A program made the translations under genes and the position numbers. The notes under the pieces are model-generated. The model saw only the letters and a list, made by a program, of their open reading frames with translations. It searched no databases and was not told the origin of the DNA. From Candidatus Woesearchaeota archaeon (GTDB lineage Archaea; Nanobdellota; Nanobdellia; Pacearchaeales; GW2011-AR1), in contig CAYHCG010000003.1 of assembly GCA_964355135.1 (NCBI GenBank), forward strand, positions 72,783-136,782: DNA of 64,000 nt, given 5' to 3'. Position 1 is the stretch's first letter. Every line of letters begins with the position of its first letter. This document shows, in pieces, positions 5,509 to 61,654 of this stretch.

Positions 5509-5510
5509 AA

Positions 5511-8682: not shown

Positions 8683-8922
8683 TTTTTCACCTCTGTAGAA
8701 TTCAGTTCTTTCAGTATCTTTTAAGCTTTATTATGGGCAATTTTATAAGTAATAAATTGACCATTGGAGATTCTGGACTCAATAAATTCAATTTCCAGAA
8801 TGCCCCTTATAATAGAATTGTTATCCCAATATTTATAAAATACTAAACTTCTGTCCGATATCTTATAATGTAAATTCTTTCTAGATAATAACTTTTAAAA
8901 GCTAGACCGTATTCCTTTATTT

Positions 8923-9627
8923 ATGACTAAACAACAAGCACTTGTCCTTCATGATATCAATCAATTACCTACAGATGGCTATGTCGTGTTCCCTATTTCT
9001 ATGAGTAGAGTTCAAAATACCCAAAATGCAGAAAAATGCTATGAGTGGTTGGGATATTTTGAAAAGAAAATTAGCGTGTTTGGACTAGATGCTATCTTTT
9101 TGTACACAAATGGGCTGTATTATAATAACGACGATCCTGCGTTAGAAATTCGTAAAAGAACAAATGGACAAATGATTGCTCACAGCAATGCTATTAGAAA
9201 GTTAATTGTAAAAGGAAGAAAATATATGCCTCAGGCAGTACATTTTGTTCCATGGGATTATATTATTCTTAATTCACCAAATTTTGATGTTTATTATAAT
9301 TTATTAAAAAAACTAGACAAGGAAGATAAAGAGTTTCACAAATTAGTATTAGAAGTTCTAAAAGATAGAAAAGAAAGTGATGCAAATATTAATTTTATTC
9401 TTGAAGAGGTAGCCATATCTCATCTTATTCGTCAAAAAGAAATTGAATTTCCTAAGACTCTTGTTAAGAAAGATAACTTTAGACTAATTGCTTACCCTGG
9501 ACCTCCTTTGAAAGCAGACATATACCAATGGAAAAATAAAATATTGCCTCAAAGCAAAGACTTTCCTTTTTATGCTTCACATTACGATTTAGATAAGAAA
9601 ATTATATACAACTTTGATGAAAATTAA
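8923..9627 (+). CDS. hypothetical protein with a cyclodipeptide-synthase-like motif pattern (tentative)
   Basis: 234 aa. PIS near the N-terminus, NFILEE, and LIAYPGP occur in the order and spacing of CDPS catalytic Ser, YxxxE and YP (XYP-subfamily) motifs. Assessed by eye only. Confidence 0.45.
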   Translation: MTKQQALVLHDINQLPTDGYVVFPISMSRVQNTQNAEKCYEWLGYFEKKISVFGLDAIFLYTNGLYYNNDDPALEIRKRTNGQMIAHSNAIRKLIVKGRKYMPQAVHFVPWDYIILNSPNFDVYYNLLKKLDKEDKEFHKLVLEVLKDRKESDANINFILEEVAISHLIRQKEIEFPKTLVKKDNFRLIAYPGPPLKADIYQWKNKILPQSKDFPFYASHYDLDKKIIYNFDEN

Positions 9628-9700
9628 TTTAGTTTATTCAACTTAAGATAGAAGATATAACGTCCATTATATTTATAAAGTCCCCTTGCTTAAATTATAA

Positions 9701-9862
9701 ATGGCAGCAACACCCCCAGGCGCAAAAAAAAGAAAATTAGAATATAATGTAGATCAAGCAATATATGATGATTTCATCAAAGCCTGCAGCAAAAAAGGAT
9801 ATGCTCCACAGATAATTCTAGAACAAGCAATGAAGAAATTCACTCAAAACGGACAAATTTAA
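9701..9862 (+). CDS. small ribbon-helix-helix-like protein (53 aa, below the ORF-track cutoff)
   Basis: ATG 9701, TAA 9860-9862. LEYNVDQAIYDDFIKACSKKGYAPQIILEQAMKKF fits a strand-helix-helix pattern. Confidence 0.45.
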   Translation: MAATPPGAKKRKLEYNVDQAIYDDFIKACSKKGYAPQIILEQAMKKFTQNGQI

Positions 9863-9868
9863 GTCCTT

Positions 9869-10117
9869 ATGAAAAAATATTGGTTCAAAGCTAAAAAATA
9901 CGGCTGGGGATGGTACCCATCTTCTTGGCAAGGTTGGTCAATTCTTCTTTTATTCATTATAATGGAAGTACTTTTGTTCATAAAACTAGATTCACACTCT
10001 GTTTCAGTAAACCAAACTCTAATCAGCTTTATTCCCCTCTCAATAATTTTAGTAGTAAAATTAATTATAATCTGTTACCTCACAGGAGAAAAGCCACGCT
10101 GGCGTTGGGGTAAATAA
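9869..10117 (+). CDS. small membrane protein (2 TM)
   Basis: 82 aa with a Trp-rich N-terminus followed by two hydrophobic helices. Confidence 0.6.
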   Translation: MKKYWFKAKKYGWGWYPSSWQGWSILLLFIIMEVLLFIKLDSHSVSVNQTLISFIPLSIILVVKLIIICYLTGEKPRWRWGK

Positions 10118-10138
10118 GCTAGATAATAAAATAAGATT

Positions 10139-10777
10139 ATGGCATTAAACATCTACTTATTCCGTCATGCCCAAACTCCTTATAATGCAAACAATGATGT
10201 CTTAGTAGGGGGAAGATCAAATTTTTTAGAGTTATCTGTCCCCAAAGGAATTGAACAGGCCCAACTACTGGGAAAAAGATTAAAGGCAGAAAAGATAAAA
10301 TTCGATAGGGTATACTCCTCTCCTGCCATTAGAACAATAAAAACCGCAAACATTGTATGTGATATCATAAACTTTCCAAAGGACAAGATAGTATTAGTTG
10401 ATGACTTAATGGAATTATCACAGGGAGATTGGGAAGGATTAGATAAAGTTCAGGCCTATACTCCAGCAGTATTGTCACAAATGACAGAAAAACACTGGGA
10501 ATTCAAAGCGCCCAATGGAGAGTCACAAAAAATGGTTGAAGAGAGAATGTATCAATGGGTTGAAAAACAATTAATAACCTCAGATCAAAATATTGCTGTT
10601 TTCGGCCATGGAATTGCAATAAAATGTCTTATTAGAAAAATCATGAATTCAGATCCCAGATTAACTTATAGAATTTCCATAGATAATTGCTCCATTACTC
10701 AATTTAAGTATAATCATGCTGGTCAACATAAAGGATGGAGCTTAATTAAAGTAAACGACACAGGACATTTAGTATAA
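10139..10777 (+). CDS. histidine phosphatase family protein (phosphoglycerate-mutase-like)
   Basis: N-terminal LFRHAQT (RHG-type) motif and a later GHG. Confidence 0.85.
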   Translation: MALNIYLFRHAQTPYNANNDVLVGGRSNFLELSVPKGIEQAQLLGKRLKAEKIKFDRVYSSPAIRTIKTANIVCDIINFPKDKIVLVDDLMELSQGDWEGLDKVQAYTPAVLSQMTEKHWEFKAPNGESQKMVEERMYQWVEKQLITSDQNIAVFGHGIAIKCLIRKIMNSDPRLTYRISIDNCSITQFKYNHAGQHKGWSLIKVNDTGHLV

Positions 10778-13630: not shown

Positions 13631-14872
13631 TCAAATTTTCTTCTTTGCCCAGAAAACAAGCTGATCAGGATGGTCCTGATATCTCTTCCAAAAATCTTTG
13701 CCTTTTTCCTCAATTCCTTTGGAAGAAACCCGAGCATTTCTAAAAGTTAGCTGAGAAAACTTTAATTTTTCAAAGATTTCCTTAATAGTTTGTGTCTTCC
13801 AGACAAAATTATGGAAATGAAGAACTTCAAGGCCATTTTGATAGATAGATATCCTTCTTGGTGATCCTTCTATTTTGGCATTTCCTTCAGCACTAATTTC
13901 TACCCCATATATAGAATCAGAAAATGAAGAAGCATCTGGATGATCCAACATACCAAAGAAAAGGCCTCCTGGTTTGAGTAAAGCAGAGATATGGTTTACA
14001 ACTTTTTTTAAATCATCTCTATTCATCGCATGATCAAGAAGAAAGAAACCAAGAACAATATCTGCCTTGCCTAGCAATTCTTTAGGAAGTGAATTTAGAA
14101 AATCTCCATCACAAGGATCAATAATGTGGTATATGATTCCTTGGGGGTTTTTCATTTCTTCTTCACGTGCAATCTGTATTTGTTTATGCGAAAGATCAAT
14201 ACCTACAACTTCTCTAGCTCCGTACTCTTTCGCTAAACGAGCTCGGTAGCCGCTGCCTGCATGAAGAACTACAACTTTCTTTCCCCTACCATTTTCCTTA
14301 ATAAAGTTAGATATTTCATAATCATAAACATACTTTTGTGCAAGAGTGTTTTCAACAAGACGATATTCAACTGCAATGGCATCATACTGAGTTTTATGAA
14401 TATGTAAACTATTTATCTTGCCCTCAAAATCTTTCTTTATCTGCTTCAATGCATCTTCTACCGAATCAAAGAAGTAATCACAATAAAATTTTAGCCAGGA
14501 ATGTTTCCTTCTTTCTTTGGGAACAACAGCGTATACTTTTTTATCAAATAATTCTTTTGCGATAGTCACTTCGCACGCAGTACCTATAGACAATGCAGTA
14601 AAGTCCGCTATAACAACATCAGACTGCTTAATATAATGCTTATCTTTAGCAAGAATATAGGAAGGATCATAATCTTTAGTCTCAAAGTCATCTTTTTTCT
14701 GATATCCGATAAACTGCTCAAGCAATTCAAAGCCAAAGGATTCAACCAACCTAGCAAGATCTTTCCTTTCTTTTACCAATTCCTCAAATACTTTACCCGT
14801 AAATGGCATGGAGATAAAAACACGCAATTTCCTTTCTTTTGATTGGAGCTTCTTTAAATTTCTAGAGGTCAT
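13631..14872 (-). CDS. fusion protein: nucleoside 2-deoxyribosyltransferase-like N-domain + class I SAM methyltransferase
   Basis: N-domain: VFISMPF ... DVVIADFTALSIGTACEVTIA. C-domain: VVVLHAGSGY ... VVGIDLS ... LLKPGG. Confidence 0.7.
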   Translation of the reverse strand: MTSRNLKKLQSKERKLRVFISMPFTGKVFEELVKERKDLARLVESFGFELLEQFIGYQKKDDFETKDYDPSYILAKDKHYIKQSDVVIADFTALSIGTACEVTIAKELFDKKVYAVVPKERRKHSWLKFYCDYFFDSVEDALKQIKKDFEGKINSLHIHKTQYDAIAVEYRLVENTLAQKYVYDYEISNFIKENGRGKKVVVLHAGSGYRARLAKEYGAREVVGIDLSHKQIQIAREEEMKNPQGIIYHIIDPCDGDFLNSLPKELLGKADIVLGFFLLDHAMNRDDLKKVVNHISALLKPGGLFFGMLDHPDASSFSDSIYGVEISAEGNAKIEGSPRRISIYQNGLEVLHFHNFVWKTQTIKEIFEKLKFSQLTFRNARVSSKGIEEKGKDFWKRYQDHPDQLVFWAKKKI

Positions 14873-14941
14873 ATTATAGTTTTGTAATTCCTTAAGTCCT
14901 TCCTATTTCTAAGAATAACAGATATATAAATTTGCCGCAGA

Positions 14942-15556
14942 TTAATGCGTTAAAACAAAGAAAACCATGATAGCGGCAAACTTGACCGCTACTCCTAAAA
15001 TCATAAATGAAAATAGCCTATATACATTATATCGGGTTATCCCTAAAGCAAAAGTAAGCAAGGGTGCAGGCAAAAACAGCAGATTGAAAAAGAAAACCCC
15101 CCAAGCGCCACGCTTATTTACAAATCGCCTTACTTTGTAAACTTTTTTCTTAGAAAAGAAATATAAGAGGGGCTTGCTCAATTTTTTACCCATGTAATAA
15201 TTAGCTACCTGGGCAAGAAGAAAACCAGCATTAATCATCAAGGCAGACCAAAATAACGGACTACCTTTCGTTATAGCCAACCAATAGAACAGTTCTTCAG
15301 GCAAAGGTACAAAAAAGATGCTAGAACCAAATCCGGCATAAAAAATTCCTGCAGGAGTCAATGAATTAACCTGGGCAAGGATTAATTCTTTTATAGAAGT
15401 ATAATAGGACCCACTCTTGCTAAAGCCCTCAAAAGTGCTGAAGAGAGCAATACTTAATCCTAAAATTATAACCAAACAGACAACAAATACGAGAAATACT
15501 TTTATTTTCTGGCGATTAGAATTTTCTATAATAAAGCGATCATCCCATTTTCCCAT
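14942..15556 (-). CDS. polytopic membrane protein (DedA/VTT-like, tentative)
   Basis: 204 aa with 5-6 hydrophobic helices. Confidence 0.55.
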   Translation of the reverse strand: MGKWDDRFIIENSNRQKIKVFLVFVVCLVIILGLSIALFSTFEGFSKSGSYYTSIKELILAQVNSLTPAGIFYAGFGSSIFFVPLPEELFYWLAITKGSPLFWSALMINAGFLLAQVANYYMGKKLSKPLLYFFSKKKVYKVRRFVNKRGAWGVFFFNLLFLPAPLLTFALGITRYNVYRLFSFMILGVAVKFAAIMVFFVLTH

Positions 15557-15595
15557 TATTAAATAAGAAATTATTATGTAATAAAGCTTTCCACA

Positions 15596-16987
15596 TCAAG
15601 TTTTTTCAACTCTAATGCCTTTATCTGTATCCTGGATAGAATAACCTTTTTCTTTTATTTTATCTCTTATCACATCTGCTTCTTTCCATTTCTTCTCTTT
15701 TCTCAGCCTTTCTCTCTCTTCTACAAGTTTCTTGACATCATTGCTAACTTTAACTTCTCTTTCCTCCATGTCTTTCACATCTAATCCCAGCACAGAGTCA
15801 AAGTTTTCTAAAACTTCCAATTTCTTCTTAGGGTTAAACTCTTCATCGTCTAGCATTGCCCAGACTGTCTGCATAACTAGAGGCATATTCAAGTCATCAT
15901 TGATTGCTTCTAAAAATAGTTTTTCATAGTTATCAGTCTTATCCTTTCCCTTCTTCTCACTCTCTCTAAGTTCGATTACTTTTCTTCTCATTCTTTCTAA
16001 AGCATTCTTTGCAGAATTTAAGTTATCCATAGAGAAACTTAGTTGGCTGCGATAATGCGCTAATAAGCATAAATACCTAAAGTCAAGTGCATTATGACCA
16101 AGATCTTCTAGTTCACTAATTGTATAAAGTCCTCCCTTGCTCTTGCTTATCTTTTCCCCCTTGAATGTTAAAAATGCTCCATGTATCCAATAATTTACAT
16201 ATTTCTTCCCGGTTGCACATTCGCTTTGAGCAATTTCATTTGTATGGTGTATCTGGATATGGTCCTCTCCTCCAGTATGAATATCAAAATGTTCTCCTAG
16301 GTATTTCATTGACATTGCTGAGCATTCAATATGCCAACCTGGAAAACCGACCCCCCATGGAGAATCCCATTCTTGCTGTCTCTTTACCCCATTTTCCGAA
16401 AATTTCCATAATGCGAAATCAGTTTTATTCTTCTTATCCCCAAATGCCACCCTCTTTCCTTTCTTCAACCCTTCCAGATTCAATCTTCCGAGTTTAGAGT
16501 AATCTTTAAATTTAAAACTATCAAAATATACTCCATCTGAGGTTTGATAAGTATATCCTTTCTTTTCTAGTTTTGTAATAAGGTCAATTTGTTCTTTAAT
16601 ATGTTCACTTGCCTTTGGCCATTTATCTGGTTGAAGTATGTTTAATTTAATTAAGTCTTCCTTAAATATCTTAAAATAGAAATTCGCAATATCTTTAGCA
16701 TTCTTTCCCTCTTTTAAGGCGGCTTTTTCCATCTTATCTTCACCTTCATCAGAATCAGAGGTCAAATGCCCTACATCTGTAACATTAACTATATGATTTA
16801 CTTTATACCCATTATATAACAAAGTCTTTTTCAATAAATCAGAAAAGATATATGCCCTCATATTTCCTATATGCTGGTAACTATAAACTGTCGGCCCACA
16901 CGTATACATTCCAACTTGTCCTTTCTTTAGAGGCTTAAAGGTCTCCTTCTTCCTACTTAGGGTATTGTAAAACTCTAGTCCTGCCAT
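15596..16987 (-). CDS. cysS: cysteinyl-tRNA synthetase
   Basis: CGPTVY..HIGN (HIGH region), KISKSKG (KMSKS), and WHIECS zinc-site region. Confidence 0.95.
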   Translation of the reverse strand: MAGLEFYNTLSRKKETFKPLKKGQVGMYTCGPTVYSYQHIGNMRAYIFSDLLKKTLLYNGYKVNHIVNVTDVGHLTSDSDEGEDKMEKAALKEGKNAKDIANFYFKIFKEDLIKLNILQPDKWPKASEHIKEQIDLITKLEKKGYTYQTSDGVYFDSFKFKDYSKLGRLNLEGLKKGKRVAFGDKKNKTDFALWKFSENGVKRQQEWDSPWGVGFPGWHIECSAMSMKYLGEHFDIHTGGEDHIQIHHTNEIAQSECATGKKYVNYWIHGAFLTFKGEKISKSKGGLYTISELEDLGHNALDFRYLCLLAHYRSQLSFSMDNLNSAKNALERMRRKVIELRESEKKGKDKTDNYEKLFLEAINDDLNMPLVMQTVWAMLDDEEFNPKKKLEVLENFDSVLGLDVKDMEEREVKVSNDVKKLVEERERLRKEKKWKEADVIRDKIKEKGYSIQDTDKGIRVEKT

Positions 16988-22500: not shown

Positions 22501-24237
22501 GTGAAGAAAGCACAAATACGCCAGCCAATCGTCACAGTCGCTGGCCATGTAGATCATGGGAAAACCAGTCTATTAGATCAATTTAGAGGTAGCTCTGTCC
22601 AAAGTGGAGAAGCAGGGGGAATTACACAGAAGATCTCATTTACAAAATATCCTTTAACTCAAATAAAAAGAGCCTGCCCTTTGATTGATAAACAAGGAAT
22701 TGATCTTGAAATCCCCGGTTTTCTATTCATTGACACCCCGGGACACGCAGCCTTTACAAATTTAAGAAAACGTGGAGGAACTCTTGCAGATTTAACCATT
22801 CTTGTTGTCAACATAAAAGAAGGAATAAAACCACAAACAGCAGAAGTATTGCAAATATTAAAGGCAAATAAAACTCCTTTCTTGATTGCATTAAATAAAA
22901 TAGACACTATCTCAGGATGGAAGCCGTTTAATGGTAAAACGCTAAAAGAGTCTATCGAGTCCCAAGCAATCAACGTCAGTCAGGAATTCCAGGAAGCATT
23001 ATTGACTTTCCAAGGTTCTCTCTCAGAGCATGGTTTTGAATCAGATTTATATTATGAAATCTCAGACTTTACAAAAAGAGTAGCTCTCGTTCCCTGCTCT
23101 GCAAGAACAAAAGAAGGCATTCCCGAATTATTATTAGTTCTTTGTGGACTCTCGCAAAGATTCCTTAAAGAAAGACTAACTATCTCAGATAGTGCTAAAG
23201 GAGTCATCCTAGAGATAAAAAAAGAGAAATCCTTAGATTCAATCGAAGCAATTCTATATGATGGTACTCTCAAAGAAGGAGATGAAATTGCGATAGCAAG
23301 TTTCGATACTTTAATCACTTCAAAAATCAGGGCAATAGAAGAAATAGAATCTCTTTCTTTTAAGTATAAATCAACAAAAGAAGCAACAGCAGCTACCGGA
23401 GTCAGGCTTCAGCTCACTAATAAAGAAAATCTTCTCTCAGGAATGCCCTTTCAAAAAATAGACAATAACCTAGAAAAAATTAAGGAAAATTTCAAAAAAG
23501 AACTCTCTCATGCAATAAAAACAGATCCACAAGGGATTATCATAAAAGCAGATTCTCTAGGCAGCCTAGAAGCTCTAATCACTCTCTTAAGACAAAATCA
23601 CATTAGTATCGTAAAGGCAGGAGTCGGCCCCGTAAGCAAAACAGATATTGTTTCTGCAAAAGCAAATCTAGAAATAAACTCTTTAGATGCCGTAATCCTT
23701 GGTTTTAATGTTAAACTGGATGAAGACACTCAAGCAGACAACATCAAAATCCTCACTAGTGAAGTCATCTACAAACTCATTGAGGACTTGCAAGTATGGA
23801 GAAAACAAAAGCAAAGCGATGTGGAAAGAGAAAGATTGATGGAACTTGCAACAGTCTGCAAATTAGAAATCTTACCTCAATATATCTTCAGAAATTCCAA
23901 TCCGGCAGTCTTTGGAGTGAAAGTATTGGCGGGAAAAATCAAGAATAACCTTCCATTGATAGATCAAAATAACGAGGAAGTAGCTAGAGTAAAAGCGATT
24001 CAATCTGAGAAAAAGTCAGTAGAGGAAGCTTCAGAAGGTCAAGAGATAGCAGTCTCCCTTCCAGGAGTAGCTTTCGATAGAAAGCTCAAAGACATCAAAT
24101 TCCTATACTCCCAATTAGGCGAAAGTCAATTCAAGAAATTTAAGCAAAATAAAGATCTTCTATCCCAAACAGAAATAAGAACTTTAGAAGAAATAGCAGC
24201 CTTGAAGAGAAAAACCAAGTTAGACTGGGGCGTTTAG
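22501..24237 (+). CDS. infB: translation initiation factor aIF5B (IF-2 homolog)
   Basis: GTG start. GHVDHGKTSLLD, DTPGH and NKID GTPase motifs. 578 aa with no intein. Confidence 0.93.
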   Translation: MKKAQIRQPIVTVAGHVDHGKTSLLDQFRGSSVQSGEAGGITQKISFTKYPLTQIKRACPLIDKQGIDLEIPGFLFIDTPGHAAFTNLRKRGGTLADLTILVVNIKEGIKPQTAEVLQILKANKTPFLIALNKIDTISGWKPFNGKTLKESIESQAINVSQEFQEALLTFQGSLSEHGFESDLYYEISDFTKRVALVPCSARTKEGIPELLLVLCGLSQRFLKERLTISDSAKGVILEIKKEKSLDSIEAILYDGTLKEGDEIAIASFDTLITSKIRAIEEIESLSFKYKSTKEATAATGVRLQLTNKENLLSGMPFQKIDNNLEKIKENFKKELSHAIKTDPQGIIIKADSLGSLEALITLLRQNHISIVKAGVGPVSKTDIVSAKANLEINSLDAVILGFNVKLDEDTQADNIKILTSEVIYKLIEDLQVWRKQKQSDVERERLMELATVCKLEILPQYIFRNSNPAVFGVKVLAGKIKNNLPLIDQNNEEVARVKAIQSEKKSVEEASEGQEIAVSLPGVAFDRKLKDIKFLYSQLGESQFKKFKQNKDLLSQTEIRTLEEIAALKRKTKLDWGV

Positions 24238-30953: not shown

Positions 30954-31040
30954 TCTTATTGTTTCAAAAGAATTATTGTTAAGATATACAAAGTTGCCAA
31001 CCATCCAAACCCTTATAAAACCCATTTTCTCTTTCTTTAT

Positions 31041-31097
31041 ATGTCAAGAATTAATTGAATTCTTGAGCATGCTCAGAAATCGGAGATTTATGACAAT
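31041..31097. repeat. nested palindromic MITE-like element, copy C, overlapping the aIF2-gamma promoter and start
   Basis: TTCTTTATATGTCAAGA left end, core TCTTGAGCATGCTCAGAA (one deletion), degenerate right arm TTATGACAAT that covers the ATG. Confidence 0.55.
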
Positions 31098-32310
31098 GGC
31101 AGAGAAAAGTAAACAACAAACAGTTTCAGCAGATGAATTAGAAACTATTAATATAGGTATCTTTGGACACATAGATCATGGTAAGACTTCGCTACTTGAA
31201 AAAATAAGCGGAAAATGGACAGATACTCACTCAGAAGAAATTAAAAGAGGAATAACCATAAAACTAGGATATGCAGATACAATCATCTGTAAAGACAAAG
31301 ATGAATATAATATCTCCGGCAAGGGAACCCCAGTAAGACACGTATCTTTTATTGATTCTCCAGGACATGAGATGTTAATGGCCACAACTTTATCTGGAGC
31401 AGCTTTAATAGATGCTGCAATTCTAGTTATTGCTGCAAATGAAGGCATAAAGCCTCAAACTCAAGAACATTTAATGGTCTTACTTGCAAAAAAAGTAGAA
31501 AAAATTATAGTTGTTCAAAATAAAATAGATTTAGTTAATATTGAAGTAGCAAAAAAGAATTATTCTGAAATAAAAAGATTCCTTGGAGAAAAATACGCAA
31601 GCTCTAAAATAATTCCAGTTTCAGCCCAACAAAATGTTAATATTTCGCAAATCTTAAGAGCAATCTGTGAAATATCCATTCCCAAAAGAAACCCTGCAGA
31701 TATCCCAGTATTTACAGTAGCAAGAAGTTTTGATATCAACAAACCAGGTACATCTCCAAAAGAATTACATGGGGCAGTGTTAGGAGGAACATTAATACAA
31801 GGAAAATTAAAGGTCGGAGATATGATTGAAATAAAACCTGGAAGAAGCACTAAAGAAGAAAACGAAAAGAAATATCATTCAATCAATACAAAAATAATCT
31901 CCCTTTTCAAAGGCTCAAATAAAACTGCAGAATTAACTCCTGGAGGCAGCATGTCAATAGAAACAGATCTTGATATGGCATTAGCTAAATCCGATGCTTT
32001 AGCAGGCAATCTAGTCTCCCATATCGGAAAATTACCGCAGTCTTCAAATATTATAAAAATGAAATATCACTTATTTCCTAGAGTTTTTGGAATATCAAGT
32101 GAAACAAAAGTAGAAGAAGTAAAAAAAGGAGAAGTTATAATGCTTTCAATAAACACTTCTGTAACTGGCGGAACGGTAACTACAATAAATAAAGATGAAT
32201 TGCAGATCTCTCTTAAAATCCCAGCAATTTTCTTCAAAAGTGAAAACGTTGGCTTGGGTAGAAATATCCTAGGTCACTGGCGTTTGATTGGTTATGGTGA
32301 GGTAATATAA
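31090..32310 (+). CDS. eif2g: translation initiation factor aIF2 gamma subunit
   Basis: GHIDHGKTS, DSPGH and NKID motifs; a KRGITIKLGYAD segment. Start set at MTMAEK, preceded by GGAG. The 38 upstream ORF-track codons overlap the repeat/promoter. Confidence 0.93.
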   Translation: MTMAEKSKQQTVSADELETINIGIFGHIDHGKTSLLEKISGKWTDTHSEEIKRGITIKLGYADTIICKDKDEYNISGKGTPVRHVSFIDSPGHEMLMATTLSGAALIDAAILVIAANEGIKPQTQEHLMVLLAKKVEKIIVVQNKIDLVNIEVAKKNYSEIKRFLGEKYASSKIIPVSAQQNVNISQILRAICEISIPKRNPADIPVFTVARSFDINKPGTSPKELHGAVLGGTLIQGKLKVGDMIEIKPGRSTKEENEKKYHSINTKIISLFKGSNKTAELTPGGSMSIETDLDMALAKSDALAGNLVSHIGKLPQSSNIIKMKYHLFPRVFGISSETKVEEVKKGEVIMLSINTSVTGGTVTTINKDELQISLKIPAIFFKSENVGLGRNILGHWRLIGYGEVI

Positions 32311-39285: not shown

Positions 39286-39639
39286 CTAATCTACACATTC
39301 TTCACTAACAGTTCCGTTATCTATACGATCATGACAACCATAAGGTATTCTGAATTCAGAACACTCACCACTAAGGCTACCTTCCTCAATAGGAGAACAA
39401 TAGCCTACACAATCTTCTCTAGAGTCATCACATGGTATTCCATAGTCGCTTGTTCTAAGATTACAGCCATATTCAGAACTTCTACCCCATTGAGCCCACT
39501 CGCCGTTATAAAAGTTACATACTGCTTCACTCCCTATATTGCCACCATCTCCAGAATAGTTTCTAAAATTACCACAACCAACGACACTAGAAGCTAACAA
39601 ACTCGTCAAGACAGCACCTCTCCTTAAGGAGTTTCTCAT
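39286..39639 (-). CDS. small Cys-rich lipoprotein
   Basis: Lipobox-like LLASSVVGC; eight further Cys in the ~96-aa mature part. Confidence 0.6.
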   Translation of the reverse strand: MRNSLRRGAVLTSLLASSVVGCGNFRNYSGDGGNIGSEAVCNFYNGEWAQWGRSSEYGCNLRTSDYGIPCDDSREDCVGYCSPIEEGSLSGECSEFRIPYGCHDRIDNGTVSEECVD

Positions 39640-39678: not shown

Positions 39679-41670
39679 CTACTGAATCATCTGCTGATTC
39701 TTAATAACATCAGCAGCATCTTTATTATGCGCTAAATATCCTTCTGCATAATAAGTACTTGATCCACTAACATCTAAGTTATACACTTCAACACTTCCCT
39801 TTACTTCTTTAATAGACAATATGACTTGCTGTCCAGTTTCAGTCTTCAAGCTATCTCCTACTTTAGCGGTCCCAATCTCCGCCCATTTACCATTAACCAT
39901 CATCGGATGATTTGGAGTGACCTTTAATTTTCCATTTATCAATAAATAAGAGTCTGCCACACGACTATATAATTCTGTTACCTTGTTGCTTTCCATACTA
40001 TTACTCGCTTCGTTATAACTTACGACAACATCTCCTTCTTTAATATCTTTGATCATCACTTTTCCATTCGTTGTAGTAATCATCGTATCAGGTAAGAAGC
40101 ACGTTCCGCTAACTGGAGGATTCTTTACACAAGCACCCCACTGACAAGTTGAACTACATATTTTAGTTCCAGCTGCTCCCCCGCCAGCATTACAATTTGT
40201 TTTCTTTCCAATTGGTTCACAACCCTCTCCAACTTCTAAAATTCCATTTCCACATACAGGAGGAGGTTGCTGGAAGCAATATAGATGATTTGGAGTCGTA
40301 CAAGCAGCAATACCACCATGATTAGTCCAATTAAAATTAACTCCAGCAACTAAACCGTTAGAACCATAAACCGATGATAAGCTTGAAAGCCAATTTCCAC
40401 AATCACTACTAAAACCACCACCAAAATTAAAATGATTTCCACTTGCATCTGTCCCTGTCCAAGCTAGATTATTATTATCTAAGAGCCCTCCATATTGAGT
40501 CATATTTATTGAATTATCTAAAGATCCATCAATCAAATCATTCCAATTATCAGCGACTATTTTATTGCCACCATTAGCACTAGTACCTACAGTTCTATAT
40601 GGAACTGTAGAATGATATAATCTGGAATTTGGAGAATTACCTAAATTATCACTTATCCAAGCTCTCCAAGTTCCTCCTAAACCAGCTGCATTCGCACCCA
40701 TTTGACATTTCGCATCAGCACCTGCAACTCCTCCAAGATTCCCATTATATACTTCACTTGTTACAAAAACTAAATATCTAGGTTCATTTGCACAACTTGA
40801 ATCGCATCCGTCTCCTGAAACCAAGTTGTTATCATCACATTGTTCTGTACCCTCAGTCACACCATTTCCACAAATCTGAGTAAGAGGACAATCCTGAATA
40901 CAAGTTTGAGAGTTTTCTCCACCTCCTTGATTTGAACAAATTCCATCACCACAACTTACAGCTTGACAATTATTACTACATACGTCTAAATCTTCTTCAT
41001 TCCCATCATCACATACTTCTCCAGGACTAACACAACTATCTCCGCAAATATTATTCTGAACAATTACTGAAGTTGGAACTATATCAGAAGTCACTGCATC
41101 TCCCATGGTATAAACTCCGCTAAATGAATTAGAACCAATTAACGCAGAAGCTGTTGGTTTAACACTATAAGAATATTGGGCAGAAGGTATTGTTGTCGGT
41201 GGAACTGCCTGGCTATATTTAACAATTTTCATTTTTCCAGGCGTTTGAGTATTAACATCCGCTCCAGTACTAACGACACTCCAACCCGCAGGTAAACTAT
41301 CCTCAACGACATAAAACATATATTGATTACCAGTATTAACACTAAAATCAACATTAATAGGACAATCAACCCCAACAGAACTTGCACTTAAAGTCCTTGT
41401 AACCATATCGATAGGAGATAAATCAGGTGAAGAAACACAACTACCTAATTTAAAAATTCTATTCAAAATACTTTCACTTCCAACAAACATACAACCGTTC
41501 ATCTTCTCGCATTCTTTCTGCGAACACCATGCTCCATCGCTACATTGCTGACTACAAAAATCTTCTTGAGCACTAGCATTAGAAGAAATAGTAATTAAAA
41601 TTGCAAAAAATAAAGTTACAAAAATGTAAAACTTACCCCTTCCCTCTTTTTTCATTGTTCTATTTATCAT
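39679..41670 (-). CDS. secreted Cys-rich DUF11-like + DUF1554-like protein ending in a Hint autoprocessing domain
   Basis: Signal peptide, EDSLPAGWSVVS sandwich, and DUF1554-like block at 40270-40779. C-terminal CFLPDT ... TPNHP ... VYNL ... AHN. The start may be the internal MKKEG. Confidence 0.85.
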   Translation of the reverse strand: MINRTMKKEGRGKFYIFVTLFFAILITISSNASAQEDFCSQQCSDGAWCSQKECEKMNGCMFVGSESILNRIFKLGSCVSSPDLSPIDMVTRTLSASSVGVDCPINVDFSVNTGNQYMFYVVEDSLPAGWSVVSTGADVNTQTPGKMKIVKYSQAVPPTTIPSAQYSYSVKPTASALIGSNSFSGVYTMGDAVTSDIVPTSVIVQNNICGDSCVSPGEVCDDGNEEDLDVCSNNCQAVSCGDGICSNQGGGENSQTCIQDCPLTQICGNGVTEGTEQCDDNNLVSGDGCDSSCANEPRYLVFVTSEVYNGNLGGVAGADAKCQMGANAAGLGGTWRAWISDNLGNSPNSRLYHSTVPYRTVGTSANGGNKIVADNWNDLIDGSLDNSINMTQYGGLLDNNNLAWTGTDASGNHFNFGGGFSSDCGNWLSSLSSVYGSNGLVAGVNFNWTNHGGIAACTTPNHLYCFQQPPPVCGNGILEVGEGCEPIGKKTNCNAGGGAAGTKICSSTCQWGACVKNPPVSGTCFLPDTMITTTNGKVMIKDIKEGDVVVSYNEASNSMESNKVTELYSRVADSYLLINGKLKVTPNHPMMVNGKWAEIGTAKVGDSLKTETGQQVILSIKEVKGSVEVYNLDVSGSSTYYAEGYLAHNKDAADVIKNQQMIQ
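39724..40101 (-). other. Hint (intein/BIL/hedgehog-type) domain, 126 aa
   Basis: Block A: C524-F-L-P-D-T. Block B: T-P-N-H-P. Blocks F/G: VEVYNLDV...YYAEGYLAHN. Followed by K and only 13 more residues. Confidence 0.8.
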
Positions 41671-43400: not shown

Positions 43401-44687
43401 TCACTGCAAAAGCCATTTCCATAAAGGCACAAACTTAATTCCATTTTCCGTCTTCTCAATATTTTTTGTCAAAATTATCATTTCTTTTGTTTTTATATAA
43501 AAGGACTTAAATTTTATTAAAGCATTAATTTCTCTTTCATCGATATCATCACTATAAGTAACATTTAAAGCAGTTAAAGAGCTGTCAGAATTTTTTATAA
43601 CAAAATCTACTTCCTCCTGTTTTTCACTTTTCCAATAATAAACATCTTTTTCTTCCCTTCTCAACTTTAAAAAAACCAGATTTTCAGCTAATTTTCCTTC
43701 ATCTTTTGAGAACTTGAAAGAGACAGAATTTCTAAGTCCATTGTCAATACAATAAATTTTTGATGCCGAAGTTTTCTGTTCTTTTAAAGAATATGAAAAG
43801 TGATCCAATGTAAAAAATAAGTATGCCTCTTTAAAATAAGAAATATAATTCTTTATTGAATCATAAGATATACCTAAAGAATTTCTTAGATTTCTTAATG
43901 ATGTTAAAGAAGTAAAATTGGTAATTAAATATAACGCAAGATCTCTAGTTTTCTGGCTGTTTAAATTGTTTCTATCTATTATATCTTTATATAAAATGTC
44001 ATCAAAATACTGTTTCAATAACTTAGATTTATATGTTTCTTCTTTAAAGAATATCTCTGGAAATCCTCCAATTTCAAGATAATTTTTAAAATTTTTAATT
44101 ATCTTTCTCTTCGTTTCTTCTAGTACAATCCCTTTAGAATGTTTTTCTTTATCAATTTCAATATCTCCAAATACAAGATACTCTTCAAAATTTAAAGGAA
44201 ACACTTCAAAAGTTAAGTTTCTCCCCGTAAGAAGAGTTGAATACTCCTTTCTAAGTAAATAAGAACATGAACCTGAAAGAATAAATTTTTCATCGCTTCT
44301 TTGGTCGTATTTTTTTCTTACCCATGATTCCCAATCTTCTTTTTTATGTATCTCATCAAGAAATACATATGCTTTTTTATCTGAATTTATATTTTCCCTA
44401 TAACTATCATAAATACTCTCTAGAGAGTCTTGACTTAGTTTTTTATCATCAAAATTAATAAATAATATTTGTTTTGGTTCTATTTCATCCTCTAAAAGTT
44501 TTTTAATCATTTGGTACATGAGCGTACTTTTCCCACTTCTCCTTACTCCTAAAATTATGGTTATTTCCCTAATGTTTATAGAATTGATTAAAGAATCATA
44601 AGCCGGCCTATGTTTTCCCGTTAATTTGTCAACTAATTCTTTCTTTATCCACCAAGGGTTCCATTCATTAAGTTTTTCTATTTCCAT
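43401..44687 (-). CDS. AAA+ ATPase of the AAA_14 + DUF4143 (COG1373) type
   Basis: NPWW N-terminus, Walker A GVRRSGKST, Walker B VFLDEI. C-terminal E-VDFVI nuclease-like motif. Confidence 0.88.
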   Translation of the reverse strand: MEIEKLNEWNPWWIKKELVDKLTGKHRPAYDSLINSINIREITIILGVRRSGKSTLMYQMIKKLLEDEIEPKQILFINFDDKKLSQDSLESIYDSYRENINSDKKAYVFLDEIHKKEDWESWVRKKYDQRSDEKFILSGSCSYLLRKEYSTLLTGRNLTFEVFPLNFEEYLVFGDIEIDKEKHSKGIVLEETKRKIIKNFKNYLEIGGFPEIFFKEETYKSKLLKQYFDDILYKDIIDRNNLNSQKTRDLALYLITNFTSLTSLRNLRNSLGISYDSIKNYISYFKEAYLFFTLDHFSYSLKEQKTSASKIYCIDNGLRNSVSFKFSKDEGKLAENLVFLKLRREEKDVYYWKSEKQEEVDFVIKNSDSSLTALNVTYSDDIDEREINALIKFKSFYIKTKEMIILTKNIEKTENGIKFVPLWKWLLQ

Positions 44688-51098: not shown

Positions 51099-51102
51099 TC
51101 AC
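51052..51102 (-). promoter_or_regulatory. 51-nt segment identical to 43284-43334, directly after the ATPase stop
   Basis: Same sequence. The ATPase stop codon (51099-51101) lies inside the identical block. Confidence 0.6.
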
Positions 51103-52382
51103 TGCAGAAGCCATTTCCAGACTGGAATTAGTTTTATTTTCTTCCCTTCAATATCTATACTTTCTTCTTCATCCAGAGTTATTATAATTCCTTCTTTAAG
51201 TTTAAATTTGTTTAATGCTTCAAATAATCCATTTACTTCCCGTTGTTTATTATCCATTGTAATTTTTTCACTCACTTGAATTGCCTCAACTATCTTTTCT
51301 TTTTCCAAAATTAGAAAATCACATTCATGATTATCCCTGTTATAAAATACCTTTTTACCTTTTCTCCTAAGTTCTAAAAAAACAATATTTTCAAGCAGTT
51401 TACCTCTATCTTCTGAAAATTTAAAACTTATTGCATTTAACATTCCATTATCTATAAAATATACTTTTTTTATCGAACCAAGCTGTTTTCCTAAGGAATA
51501 TTCATATTTTAAGTTCTGAAAGAAAAGATAGGCATCTTCAAAATAAGAGATATATTCAATAATTGTATTCTTGCTTGTATTCATACCCATAGATTTCAAT
51601 TTATTAGCAAGATTATTATAAGAAATATCTTTTGAAACAGATTCCATTAATAAATTTGCTAGTATTCTTATTTTCTTTACATCTTCTATTTTGTGCCTTT
51701 CAACAAGATCTTTAAAAATCATAGATTCATAATAGTTTTGCAAAATTTCTTCACTATTTACTTTCTGGAAAATTAAAGCAGGATACCCTCCATCTTTAAT
51801 ATAAGCATTAAATAACTTCTTAATTTCTATCCTATCATTACTATGTGGTAAAGTTCTAATATCATATTTTATCTTTTTCCAGCTGACAATTTCCTTAAAG
51901 CTTAATGGAAAGATTTCTTTATTGAGAACTCGTCCCCGTAATGTTGTTGATATTTCCTTGCTAAGTAATTTCGAACTTGAACCAGTAAGAACAAATTTAA
52001 TTTTCTTGTTTACATCATGAAGTTTTCTAACCCAAGAATCCCAATTTTTTACATTTTGTATTTCATCAAGAAATAAATATATCTTCTGATTTTTATTTAT
52101 ATCGTAAAGTTCAAAATAAGCCTGGAGAAGTTTTTCTAAATCGTCTGAATCTGCTCCAATAAGTTTATTATCTTCAAAGTTTATATATAAAATGTTCTCC
52201 CTTCCAACATTATTTTTAATTAGATCTTGCATAATTTGAAAACATACAAATGTCTTTCCTGCTCTTCTAGGTCCAGATATTGTAGTTATAAAATCTCCAT
52301 CTAAACTTATGTCATGGCTCCTGCTAAAAAGCTGGGGAATTTCAAATTCTTTCCAATTAGTTATTATTTCTTTATGATTCAT
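51099..52382 (-). CDS. AAA+ ATPase of the AAA_14 + DUF4143 (COG1373) type, paralog
   Basis: Walker A GPRRAGKT, Walker B LFLDEI, E-CDFLI motif. Same C-terminal VWKWLLQ as the 43401 paralog. Confidence 0.88.
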   Translation of the reverse strand: MNHKEIITNWKEFEIPQLFSRSHDISLDGDFITTISGPRRAGKTFVCFQIMQDLIKNNVGRENILYINFEDNKLIGADSDDLEKLLQAYFELYDINKNQKIYLFLDEIQNVKNWDSWVRKLHDVNKKIKFVLTGSSSKLLSKEISTTLRGRVLNKEIFPLSFKEIVSWKKIKYDIRTLPHSNDRIEIKKLFNAYIKDGGYPALIFQKVNSEEILQNYYESMIFKDLVERHKIEDVKKIRILANLLMESVSKDISYNNLANKLKSMGMNTSKNTIIEYISYFEDAYLFFQNLKYEYSLGKQLGSIKKVYFIDNGMLNAISFKFSEDRGKLLENIVFLELRRKGKKVFYNRDNHECDFLILEKEKIVEAIQVSEKITMDNKQREVNGLFEALNKFKLKEGIIITLDEEESIDIEGKKIKLIPVWKWLLQ

Positions 52383-59221: not shown

Positions 59222-61654
59222 TTAATTAAGATTATTTTTGGGAAGATTTTCAATATAGGCCCGCAAATCTTCATCCTCAACCCATCTTAATACGGCTTTA
59301 TGAGAGACAGAAATTCCGCGATCGCGTTGTAAGATTTGAGAAGTCCCAAACCCAGTACCCTTGTCTTTGTATACTTCAAATACTGCTGCAATTTGTTCAG
59401 TTGAACTTTTTACCCCGCGATATCTCCCCTCAGGTATTCCAAGCCCGTTATATATCGTCTCAGCCGGACTAGGATCTTTTTGTAATTGCAATCTCCCCAT
59501 TACTCTAGTAAAAATTCTTTTAATTTGAGGATTTTCTTTTAGAACCAAACCCAATATTGCTCTATTTCTAATAGTATAGGGGGCAAGTTTAGTTCGAAGA
59601 TCTTCCAGATGATCATTAACAGTCTGCGTATCTTGAGTTGTAACTCCATATTTCCTCCACACATCTGTAGAGCTAAGGGCTCTGGAAGAACCATTATTTT
59701 TATTATGATTTTCAACGTAGTGAGGAACAAAATATAAAAGGTGTTCTGGTAAATCTGCACGAGTGGTAATTTTTCCTTCCTTGCGTCTTGCATTAACTAT
59801 TTTTCTTAATTCGCTCAAACGTGCTGAAGGTGAAGCTTCAGGCGTACTTTCATATTCTAATCCTAAAGCTTCATAAACTTTATCTCTTTCTAACTCGGAT
59901 TGTCTAATAACTCTCTGTAATCTTTCATACAATTTTTTATCCGCTTTCTGAAGTTGGGTAGGAGCGTTAATTCCTTTTAATTTTGTAAATTTACTAACGG
60001 CATGCACAACTGATTCTCCATCGAAACTTCTTCCTTCTCTTCTTATAGAATAACCGTTTCCTTCTAAAACAGAATCTTCATCCGGCGAAGAGTCAACTAC
60101 ATTATCAATACCTAAAGAACGTTCCCCGAACCGGGCATTTTTTGCTTTTAACTGCTCAAAAATTCTTTCCAGTTTAGCTTTCTGTATTCTAAGTCTACTA
60201 ACTTCCTCAAAATCTACATCCGCTAGTTCATAGATCTCTTTTATGCCTCCTTCAAAATGCCTGATAAGTCTAAAGCCAAATTGATCGTTAATATCTTGAA
60301 CAGTAGGATAATGTGATGCTTTAATTTCTTCTCTTACATATTCAACTACTTCTTGCCGAAGTTTTCTTTTATCTTCCTCAGAAGTAATTCTAAAAGCGGG
60401 CACAAATGGAGCAGCTTCAATAGGCTCGAAACTTATCTCGGATTTTGAATCATAAATATTAAAAAATGCCTCTCTTACTTTTTTTACGGCATTAAGTTGA
60501 ATTTTTCTTACTGTCTCCATTGTTACACCAATCTCTTCACCAATATCTTCCAAAATTCTAGTTTTTCCAGCAAATCCAAACCTCTCTTTTATAATTTTCA
60601 TCTCTCTTTCATCCAGACCTGCAAGATTATATCTAATTACATCTCTAACAAGTTCTGATTGTGATGTTTCCTTCAAAGCCCGCTTATATTCTTCATATGC
60701 TCTAGCTTCTCCAAAAGAATGCGTACGCGGATCATAAGATTCTCCAGCTTCATGTCTATCTTCCTTCATACCATATCTCAAAATCGCTTTTTCCAAACCC
60801 TTGCAGATATAAGTTGACAATCTTGTTCCAAAGTTAGGATCGAACCTCATAATACAATCGCGGATAGTTTTGGCTGTCTCTATTTCCCGCCAGTCTACTC
60901 CTCTCTTTTCTCCCATATACTTTCCTAAATTAAAAGTAATTTGCGTCAAAAAGTCCATCATTGCTGTAACCCTAAGATAAGACGTCGCCATTTCACTAAC
61001 CTTGCCCATATTATTTTCTTTATCTTCTGACTGCAGTATTTCCCCCGCAACTCTAGACATTTCTCTGCGATGATGGTTAAAAGACTTTAGAAAATAAGTT
61101 TCTTCTTCGTCAGACATTTCGTGCTGAAAACGGCTTTTCCCCTTATGCAAAACTCTCTCTCTTTCAAAAGCGCTTAATTCCTCTAGATCAGACCTAGTAT
61201 AAGTCTTGTCTTCATAAAAAATAGTCCTTCTCTCTCTCAGTACGCTCTCCAAACCTCTCTCGTCCAAAGGAATAAAACCATTGTCAAAATCAGGGCTTTC
61301 AAAAACATGGGGATATTCAATTAATAAAGCATAAGCTAAATTTTTAGGTATTTTTGTTTCTCCTGTAAAGCCAAGATATCGTTCTGCTATTTCCCTTAAA
61401 CGAGTGCTCCTTTTAATAGACTCTTGGTCAAAATTTCCGTCAAAAACCCTTTCTAGAGTACTTAAGCTATGCACTAAAGAAGCGCTTGCTTCCCTACTCA
61501 CTCCATCAGTTAGATCTTTGGGATAAAAAAGTAGTCTGCCTCTATGTGAATCAACTGCTTCTACTTCTGCCCTATACCAACCGTTTTCTATAGCTTTCAT
61601 TGTTCTTAAAAAGTCTAAAATTTGAGCATATCTGTATACTGTTTTAACAGTCAT
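59222..61654 (-). CDS. 810-aa protein with bacterial sigma-70 region 2 and region 4 motifs plus long N- and C-terminal extensions
   Basis: Region 2-like: IRDCIMRFDPNFGTRLSTYICKGLEKAILRY. Region 4-like: LDEREMKIIKERFGFAGKTRILEDIGEEIGVTMETVRKIQLNAVKKVRE. Additional C-terminal HTH-like GTSQILQRDRGISVSHKAVLRWV. Confidence 0.8.
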   Translation of the reverse strand: MTVKTVYRYAQILDFLRTMKAIENGWYRAEVEAVDSHRGRLLFYPKDLTDGVSREASASLVHSLSTLERVFDGNFDQESIKRSTRLREIAERYLGFTGETKIPKNLAYALLIEYPHVFESPDFDNGFIPLDERGLESVLRERRTIFYEDKTYTRSDLEELSAFERERVLHKGKSRFQHEMSDEEETYFLKSFNHHRREMSRVAGEILQSEDKENNMGKVSEMATSYLRVTAMMDFLTQITFNLGKYMGEKRGVDWREIETAKTIRDCIMRFDPNFGTRLSTYICKGLEKAILRYGMKEDRHEAGESYDPRTHSFGEARAYEEYKRALKETSQSELVRDVIRYNLAGLDEREMKIIKERFGFAGKTRILEDIGEEIGVTMETVRKIQLNAVKKVREAFFNIYDSKSEISFEPIEAAPFVPAFRITSEEDKRKLRQEVVEYVREEIKASHYPTVQDINDQFGFRLIRHFEGGIKEIYELADVDFEEVSRLRIQKAKLERIFEQLKAKNARFGERSLGIDNVVDSSPDEDSVLEGNGYSIRREGRSFDGESVVHAVSKFTKLKGINAPTQLQKADKKLYERLQRVIRQSELERDKVYEALGLEYESTPEASPSARLSELRKIVNARRKEGKITTRADLPEHLLYFVPHYVENHNKNNGSSRALSSTDVWRKYGVTTQDTQTVNDHLEDLRTKLAPYTIRNRAILGLVLKENPQIKRIFTRVMGRLQLQKDPSPAETIYNGLGIPEGRYRGVKSSTEQIAAVFEVYKDKGTGFGTSQILQRDRGISVSHKAVLRWVEDEDLRAYIENLPKNNLN

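Follow-up and report, generated by a model that had tools for sequence, protein, structure and literature searches.

The window analysed here is a 64,000-nucleotide stretch of contig CAYHCG010000003.1, from a Candidatus Woesearchaeota archaeon, and the element in question is the Hint domain that closes a reverse-strand gene at positions 39679-41670. Profile matches and a structural model place this domain, as a complete mini Hint, among the type A bacterial intein-like (BIL) / PT-HINT domains. The type A assignment is made because the C-terminal His-Asn pair is kept, no nucleophile stands at the following (+1) position, and the domain lies in the variable region of a secreted protein. The locus is read here as a type A BIL module in DPANN archaea, which forms a portable cassette at the C-terminus of secreted cargos, lectin-like ones as well as proteases. 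The features of the domain and its flanks are as follows, with the evidence in brackets.

40102-40263 (-): Cys-rich pre-Hint linker, residues 470-523 (CGNGILEVGEGCEPIGKKTNC...CQWGAC-VKNPPVSGT), ending at the predicted scissile Thr523 (nearly identical in the relative P0017)
39724-40101 (-): Hint domain, residues 524-649, mini form without endonuclease, type A BIL / PT-HINT by prediction (PF07591, 2LWY profile match, AlphaFold2 (AF2) and Foldseek, ratio of nonsynonymous to synonymous substitution (dN/dS))
40099-40101 (-): Cys524, block A nucleophile and only Cys of the Hint domain (98% of the 311 domains aligned have Cys in this column, as do 100% of the 40 that are terminal)
39907-39918 (-): block B Thr585-Pro-Asn-His588 (column conservation, Thr 95% and His 96%)
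39757-39759 (-): Ser638 at position 13 of block F (F:13) (His there in 62% of relatives and in all six closest)
39724-39729 (-): block G His648-Asn649 (column conservation of 96% for His and 97% for Asn, and of 98% and 95% when only terminal domains are taken)
39682-39723 (-): C-flank, Lys650 (+1) and a 13-residue non-conserved tail (DAADVIKNQQMIQ) (+1 column statistics; tails of relatives)

Classification of the Hint domain

The interval 39724-40101 comprises exactly 126 codons, from Cys524 to Asn649. An earlier reading, made without database searches (hereafter the sequence-only reading), had placed a full Hint signature in the last 140 residues of the protein. All of the motifs it quoted are present, namely SGT-C524-FLPDT, T585-P-N-H588-P, V627-EVYNLDV and YYAEGYLA-H648-N649, followed by K650 and, again as that reading had it, 13 more residues. 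The match to the Pfam family PT-HINT (PF07591) covers residues 530-649 and reaches 55.3 bits (E=1.1e-14), where the gathering score is 27.7, which puts the signature far beyond chance. The domain already carries a Pfam label in public precomputed data. A six-frame search yielded no second Hint domain elsewhere in the window.

When compared with PDB sequences as a single sequence, the domain matches 2LWY, a 'bacterial intein-like domain', with E=1.6e-10. A profile of 48 sequences, applied to all PDB sequences, ranks this C. thermocellum BIL first (E=4.9e-28), followed by Tetrahymena BUBL BIL2 (4.6e-24) and by 8W20 (8.5e-20), a large 'intein C-terminal splicing domain-containing protein'. True inteins are matched at 7.5e-16 or weaker, and Hedgehog at 3e-4 (1AT0 at 5e-4).

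The Hint domain was modelled with AF2: seven sequences yielded a predicted local distance difference test (pLDDT) of 46, and that model was not used, whereas 48 diverse domains yielded a model with a pLDDT of 92.9. The best result of comparing the latter against the PDB with Foldseek is BIL2 6Y75, with a template modelling (TM) score of 0.82 and E=2.6e-12, while 2LWY presents TM scores of 0.81/0.87 and a root mean square deviation of 1.7 A. Mini-inteins reach TM scores of approximately 0.71-0.73, Hedgehog 1AT0 reaches 0.69, and Vint 8R2C reaches 0.60. There are 64 PDB matches at E<=1e-3, and the 50 of these that are listed all have the Hint fold (BIL, intein, Hedgehog or Vint).

The properties that define the Hint superfamily were all found, i.e., a predicted Hint fold, Cys as the first residue, and Thr-x-x-His in block B. 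Type A BILs keep the C-terminal His-Asn and lack the +1 nucleophile (PMC4031507), and BIL domains are located in variable regions of secreted proteins (PMC5874633). Likewise, the window domain scores above the PF07591 threshold, ends in His-Asn, and has no Cys, Ser or Thr at +1; the protein carries a signal peptide, and the same Hint occurs on unrelated cargos. The family name would also imply a bacterial host, which is not the case here, the host being a DPANN archaeon; this is, however, a naming convention and not a mechanistic criterion.

In comparison with the neighbouring classes, the domain is neither an intein nor a type B BIL, and it belongs neither to the Hog nor to the Vint domains. 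The type B BIL model (Hint_2, PF13403) yields 26.6 bits, below its cut-off of 28.4, over profile positions 1-35 only, and the intein-like His-Asn is present. The Vint model (PF14623) yields 27.8 bits, nominally above its cut-off of 27, but over profile positions 2-73 of 166, and no von Willebrand factor A (vWA) domain accompanies it. The sequence-only reading had proposed a profile classification among type A BIL, type B BIL and Hog, and the best fit obtained is type A BIL / PT-HINT.

The canonical intein models remain below their cut-offs: PF14890 (Intein_splicing) scores 25.5 against 35.8, TIGR01445 scores 18.1 against 24.5, and TIGR01443 scores 15.2 against 15.6. These values bear on the possibility of a genuine mobile mini-intein interrupting a host protein, with which the presence of blocks A, B, F and G and the significant structural matches to mini-inteins would agree. 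However, the +1 residue is Lys instead of Cys, Ser or Thr, the C-extein would consist of 14 non-conserved residues, the site is not that of a conserved housekeeping protein, and no endonuclease is present. The comparison with the defining features of inteins already refutes this possibility, and we give it practically no credence.

A second alternative is a Hedgehog-like transfer, in which a lipid or glycan hydroxyl would resolve a thioester formed at the domain's first residue, and the ectodomain would end up esterified to a membrane or cell-wall component. The C-terminal position, the secreted N-terminal binding domain, the small-residue|Cys-Phe junction and the significant, though distant, structural match to 1AT0 are consistent with it. 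Nevertheless, there is no PF01079 match, and the profile E-values for Hog and BIL lie some 24 orders of magnitude apart, in favour of BIL. The His-Asn pair is kept and conserved, though a Hog-type reaction does not need it, and the domain is followed by 14 non-conserved residues, so that no sterol- or adduct-recognition region is present. We consider such a transfer improbable. Hence, where the sequence-only reading had invoked the logic of Hedgehog proteins and of BILs together, the BIL part stands, and the analogy with Hedgehog is weak at the level of the family.

Conservation among relatives

An exhaustive HMMER search yielded 11,816 representative proteins at E<=1e-3, with 2,299 at E<=1e-10; a word-index homolog search with the Hint region yielded one protein, P0001. 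The conservation, tail-length and architecture counts presented here were taken from the best 150 of the 11,816 homologs. Over approximately 300 aligned domains, Cys1 is conserved in 98% and the block B Thr in 95%; the block B His and the penultimate His each reach 96%, and the Asn that ends the domain reaches 97%. A lack of conservation of the catalytic Cys, His and Asn among homologs had been named in advance as evidence against an active Hint, and these values point the opposite way. The +1 column, across 267 aligned domains, holds Lys in 77%, Ala in 7% and Arg in 4%. Position 4 of block F (F:4), at which inteins usually carry Asp, is Asn in 88% of approximately 300 aligned domains. On the N-terminal side, the family consensus is Gly-Gly|Cys-Phe, and the window protein has Gly-Thr before Cys524.

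Of the 150 best relatives, 44 have no more than 30 residues behind their last Hint (0-28 after His-Asn); 24 of these proteins have a single Hint and 20 have several. The 44 terminal domains present Cys1 in 100%, the block B Thr in 91%, the block B His in 95%, His-Asn in 98% and 95%, respectively, and Lys +1 in 76%. The six closest relatives, with an identity of 51-71% across the part of the Hint that aligns, all have it in terminal position, with 6-18 residues after the Lys that are rich in Gly and Pro and unrelated in sequence. Relatives located on long contigs stop 9-19 residues past His-Asn, and these stops are real. Over the Hint region of four terminal-Hint genes, dN/dS ranges from 0.09 to 0.30 (Nei-Gojobori, with synonymous sites partly saturated), and the terminal-Hint domains are under purifying selection.

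Many relatives (P0006, P0011, P0013, P0056, P0083 and others) contain 2-10 head-to-tail Hints, joined only by His-Asn-Lys-Gly-Gly(-Gly)-Cys-Phe. If all of them were active, such tandem Hints would excise one another and leave almost nothing in between. In P0006 and approximately 20 similar representatives (P0011, P0024, P0033, P0037, P0045, P0048 and others), a signal peptide is followed by 3-5 tandem Hints, a Gly-rich stretch, a transmembrane segment and a C-terminal region of approximately 400 residues. In P0006 the latter gives two Tim44-like matches (PF04280, E=1.3e-25).

Among 185,579 species-representative genomes, the sole close match is a Candidatus Woesearchaeota metagenome-assembled genome (MAG), locus L005, with 77% identity over the Hint domain. 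The genome-collection scan yielded three loci (L005, L006 and L007), of which only L005 is relevant. The second, L006, belongs to a Woesearchaeota MAG and encodes a ribonucleotide reductase-like protein of 1830 residues (5215-10707, (+)) with apparently three canonical inteins; these have Cys or Ser at +1, and two contain an endonuclease-sized insert, in contrast to the BIL-type domain. The third, L007, from a Butyrivibrio MAG, encodes 231 residues (5710-6405, (+)) with a Nif11-like leader-type N-terminus that ends in ...VVSGG|C, followed by a divergent Hint-like domain. Its convergent neighbour (6398-7801, (-)) looks, by its motifs, like a radical S-adenosylmethionine (SAM)/SPASM enzyme, which gives this Hint a context resembling that of ribosomally synthesised and post-translationally modified peptides (RiPPs).

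The terminal cassette

The cargos of terminal Hints are diverse: lectin-like in the window protein, M6-like and M64-like metalloproteases in other relatives, and, further out, a subtilase. The ortholog is among the closest relatives, and its middle region differs from that of the window protein. When P0017 is compared with the window protein by BLASTP, they have in common only the C-terminal 180 residues or so (linker and Hint) and generic Cys-rich repeats of the DUF4215 type. Given P0017 shares both the linker and the Hint with the window protein, the two segments appear to travel together as a cassette. As far as these alignments indicate, the Cys-rich linker, the Hint, the Lys and the short tail form a portable C-terminal cassette that is shuffled onto various secreted cargos in the lineage.

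P0017 (856 residues; L008, 8001-10571, (+)) and P0020 (643 residues, with an M64-like metalloprotease motif; 14050-15981, (-)) are terminal-Hint proteins encoded 3.4 kb apart. L008 lies on the same contig as L010 and comes from the same Hainich sample as the window, with a coverage of 6.1x, against 6.2x for the window contig. Given the same sample and the nearly equal coverage, the contig of P0017 and P0020 probably belongs to the same population as the window. The two proteins are thus probably paralogs of the window protein within one population, which would hold at least three such cassettes. L008 was also considered as a copy of the window neighbourhood, since genes of 472 and approximately 550 residues occur in both, and this was rejected because BLASTP reveals no similarity between them.

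Sequence downstream of the domain

Fourteen residues after the Hint domain, the gene ends in TAG, an ordinary stop codon in the window, where it terminates 11 of the 41 long open reading frames (ORFs). No toxin domain follows the Hint, in agreement with the sequence-only reading. An ORF of 117 residues (39286-39639, (-)) begins 39 nt downstream of the Hint gene; it shares the frame of that gene and is separated from it by that one TAG and 13 sense codons. It has its own ATG, a TATA-like element (aaagtatataaat) approximately 30 nt upstream, a signal- or lipobox-like N-terminus (LLASSVVGC) and 10 Cys, which suggests an independent small secreted Cys-rich protein. A Pfam search of this ORF yielded no match, and it is absent downstream of the ortholog and of the paralogs; no conserved small gene follows P0017 or P0020. 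Stop read-through, or a fused downstream domain, was rejected on account of the ordinary stop, of the ORF's own TATA-like element, ATG and signal, and of its absence beside relatives. Nor does the ORF resemble a cognate immunity gene, as it is signal-bearing, Cys-rich and not conserved beside relatives.

These observations bear on the possibility that the domain is a vestige of a polymorphic toxin, i.e., a pre-toxin HINT that lost its toxin by a stop codon or a deletion and is now functionless, with the in-frame 117-residue ORF, in one version, as the former tip. Such an origin would explain why the best Pfam family is 'Pretoxin HINT' and why the ORF shares the frame of the Hint gene. However, all of the closest relatives are equally short-tailed on different cargos, the terminal copies keep their catalytic residues with dN/dS well below 1, the ORF looks independent, and no immunity-like gene is conserved. 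The vestigial origin is largely refuted already, and we regard it as very unlikely.

Predicted processing and fate of the thioester

Hint chemistry underlies inteins, Hedgehog lipidation and toxin release. We infer, for the window protein, that processing occurs, which bonds are cut, and what takes the thioester. After export and folding, Thr585 and His588 would promote an N-to-S acyl shift that converts the Thr523-Cys524 bond into a thioester, and His648-Asn649 would cyclise, cutting the Asn649-Lys650 bond. The net outcome would be a Hint module that removes itself from a mature ectodomain of approximately 490 residues. As in characterised type A BILs, this would be mostly cleavage, in which the thioester is hydrolysed or thiolysed and the 14-mer may or may not be released. 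In a minor or alternative route, the alpha or epsilon amine of the freed Lys650 peptide would attack the thioester by aminolysis, and the tail would be re-ligated to Thr523. We consider it fairly likely that a thioester forms at Thr523-Cys524 and that the domain removes itself, mainly by cleavage and possibly with ligation.

Type A BILs mostly give cleavage products, yet they can splice without a +1 nucleophile, since Asn cyclisation frees an amine that attacks the thioester (PMC4031507, PMC7664689). Tetrahymena BIL2, in turn, ligates its N-flank to the Lys epsilon-amine of several substrates without ATP (PMC8616854). Hence, the sequence-only reading went too far in concluding from the Lys at +1 that splicing is impossible: type A BILs splice by means of the freed amine, and BIL2 makes Lys isopeptides.

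Some points weigh against self-removal as described. The His at F:13 assists Asn cyclisation in many inteins and is dispensable in some (PMC4031507). Given the window copy has Ser638 where close relatives have His, C-terminal cleavage may be slow, weakened or lost in this copy, whereas thioester formation should be unaffected. For some metagenomic relatives, the short tail may reflect a gene call that was cut short. There is also no clear selective reason to carry a domain that merely removes itself, and self-removal accounts neither for the strong conservation of Lys at +1 nor for the tandem Hint arrays of relatives.

Amine capture, in cis or in trans, is by analogy a real possibility, because BIL2 ligates to a lysine epsilon-amine and Lys is conserved at +1. 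In a conjugation device of this kind, the thioester would be captured in trans by an amine, either a Lys of an envelope, S-layer or host-cell protein or the head group of an amino-lipid. Covalent anchoring of the ectodomain would then need no sortase-like enzyme, in the way that BIL2 joins a ubiquitin-like domain to lysines. In this scheme, the +1 Lys might serve as a built-in default acceptor or as a general base that positions the incoming amine. In line with this, BIL2, the top structural match, makes K(epsilon-NH2)-C-terminus isopeptides without ATP (PMC8616854), and Lys +1 occurs in 76-77% of domains regardless of context. The family N-flank Gly-Gly|Cys-Phe resembles the ubiquitin-like/BIL junction, and once the signal peptide is removed nothing anchors the mature protein in the membrane. 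The cargos resemble adhesins or are hydrolytic, and the archaeon presumably lives as an episymbiont. However, the argument is purely one of analogy, no partner gene is conserved near the ortholog or the paralogs, and Gly-Thr, instead of Gly-Gly, precedes Cys524 in the window protein. The device is therefore a tentative proposal, which we hold to be unlikely for the window protein, and self-removal remains the preferred account.

The host protein and its surroundings

The whole gene and the modules that precede the linker are as follows.

39679-41670 (-): whole gene, predicted to encode a secreted modular protein of 663 residues, with the TAG stop at 39679-39681 (ORF list and translation)
41569-41670 (-): signal peptide, residues 1-34, with n-region KKEGRGK, h-region 14-32 and predicted cleavage at A-S-A|Q35 (sole hydrophobic 19-mer of the protein)
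41056-41568 (-): N-terminal Cys-rich and beta-rich module, residues 35-205 (common to the Woesearchaeota ortholog; BLASTP against P0009 aligns residues 2-195)
40774-41055 (-): DUF4215 / myxo_disulf_rpt Cys-rich acidic repeats, residues ~206-299 (PF13948, E=4.5e-07; TIGR02232, E=4e-12)
40276-40755 (-): DUF1554 / endostatin-like domain (LenA/B-like, lectin-like), residues ~306-465 (PF07588, 26.7 bits)

From its sequence, the product is predicted to be a modular protein rich in disulfides, which a DPANN (Woesearchaeota-like) archaeon would export by the Sec route and either secrete or display on its surface. The same gene is called, or an identical protein is encoded, on six Hainich groundwater metagenome contigs (well H52, 0.1 um filter fraction). 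The sequence-only reading had described a secreted archaeal protein with a Cys-rich, lectin-like ectodomain, and each part of this description is supported. Regarding secretion, the sole hydrophobic segment (residues 14-32) is followed by A-S-A|Q, where the cleavage site was placed by the -3/-1 rule instead of a dedicated predictor, and the L005 ortholog presents a matching signal-peptide layout with a V-K-A|Q site. As residues 14-32 are the only hydrophobic stretch, hydrophobicity reveals no C-terminal membrane segment in the 663-residue protein. Regarding the host, aIF2-gamma (30976-32310) and aIF5B (22501-24237) are encoded in the window, which makes this archaeal DNA, and the closest genome match is the Woesearchaeota MAG.

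The ectodomain contains 30 Cys, in comparison with one in the Hint domain, which is the nucleophile Cys524. Its N-terminal module gives only a weak bMG10-like Pfam hint, and the Cys-rich repeats are of the DUF4215 type. The score of the DUF1554/endostatin-like domain falls slightly below the PF07588 gathering score of 27.5, and the PF06482 and NF047482 matches are weak; this domain is paralogous to the C-terminus of the neighbouring metalloprotease of 1033 residues. The Hint segment has a GC content of 0.357, close to the 0.370 of the remaining gene, and composition therefore gives no indication that it was transferred recently; the GC content of the window is approximately 35%.

The gene stands within a same-strand run of large secreted-protein genes. 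Positions 28019-63946 form a dense island of such genes, including four M6/gametolysin-like metalloproteases, an FG-GAP protein, InlB-B-repeat proteins of 1583 and 2235 residues, and a beta-helix and laminin-G protein. Two AAA_14/DUF4143 ATPase genes (43401-44687 and 51099-52382) are interspersed in it. In an ORF of 810 residues (59222-61654, (-)), the only recognisable feature is a match to Sigma-70 region 4 at residues 344-395 (PF04545, E=2.7e-10). The window yielded neither tRNA nor Rfam features.

Significance

BIL domains were described in 2003 and, to our knowledge, their biological purpose is still largely unknown. At this locus there is nothing downstream to release, so the chemistry must act on the cargo, which it would mature, release or attach covalently. 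Metagenomes commonly contain the cassette, judging from the 44 terminal Hints among the 150 best relatives, and the purpose of BIL thioesters is directly testable on a small construct. Within the literature searched, no specific description of Hint or intein-like domains in DPANN or in the Candidate Phyla Radiation (CPR) emerged, and no prior description was found of the combination of a DPANN host with a terminal, toxin-free architecture with Lys at +1; the domain family itself is known.

By analogy with BIL2, the terminal 'Cys-Phe...His-Asn-Lys + short tail' cassette might even constitute a module that conjugates proteins without an enzyme and is widespread among ultra-small archaea and bacteria, in which the thioester on the last ectodomain residue would be passed to a lysine or a lipid amine, with the +1 Lys as acceptor or catalytic helper. 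We think this generalisation is doubtful. If it were true, adhesins and proteases would be fixed covalently to the cell's own envelope or to the host cell, and the module would be a prokaryotic extracellular counterpart of the ubiquitin-like conjugation by BIL2 and a functional analogue of sortase/archaeosortase anchoring. The tandem arrays, with their His-Asn-Lys-Gly-Gly-Cys-Phe junctions, would then be multi-thioester cross-linkers. Should the thioester be transferred instead of hydrolysed, this would mean that episymbiotic microbes have a new mechanism of surface anchoring or adhesion, and that nature provides a compact ligation tag; with self-cleavage only, the domain would be an ordinary new member of its family.

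Comparison with known systems

Like the window domain, the C. thermocellum BIL (2LWY) has Cys1, TxxH and a C-terminal His-Asn, lacks a +1 nucleophile, is of mini-domain size, and is located in a variable region of a secreted protein. The window domain differs in that it belongs to a DPANN archaeon and is terminal, with a non-conserved flank of 14 residues. In addition, Lys at +1 and Asn at F:4 are family-wide among its relatives, and the window copy has Ser at F:13.

Tetrahymena thermophila BUBL BIL2 (6Y75/6TMM) is the top structural and second-best sequence match, and has a similar small-residue|Cys-Phe N-junction. Its own distinctive feature is that a lysine amine is a documented thioester acceptor (PMC8616854). 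However, BIL2 is eukaryotic, cytoplasmic and flanked by ubiquitin-like domains, while the window domain has an extracellular ectodomain of approximately 490 residues as its N-flank and a short peptide as its C-flank. No ubiquitin-like fold was detected in the window protein.

The pre-toxin HINT domains of MafB and of Rhs/TpsA-type toxins belong to the same Pfam family (PF07591) and also occur in secreted multidomain hosts. In polymorphic toxins, HINT stands immediately before the toxin domain, and its presumed role is autoproteolytic processing (PMC3482391). There, a C-terminal toxin and an immunity gene follow, whereas the window protein has 14 residues and no conserved immunity-like gene.

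The Hedgehog Hog domain (1AT0) likewise has the Hint fold at the C-terminus of a secreted protein, with an X|Cys-Phe junction at which Hog makes its thioester, as the window protein would be expected to do. Yet Hog lacks the terminal His-Asn and has a sterol-recognition region, and the window domain is the reverse. Finally, class 1 mini-inteins (Ssp/Npu DnaB, gp41-1) share the fold and blocks A, B, F and G, but the window domain has no +1 nucleophile, carries Asn instead of Asp at F:4, does not interrupt a conserved host protein, and falls below the intein cut-offs.

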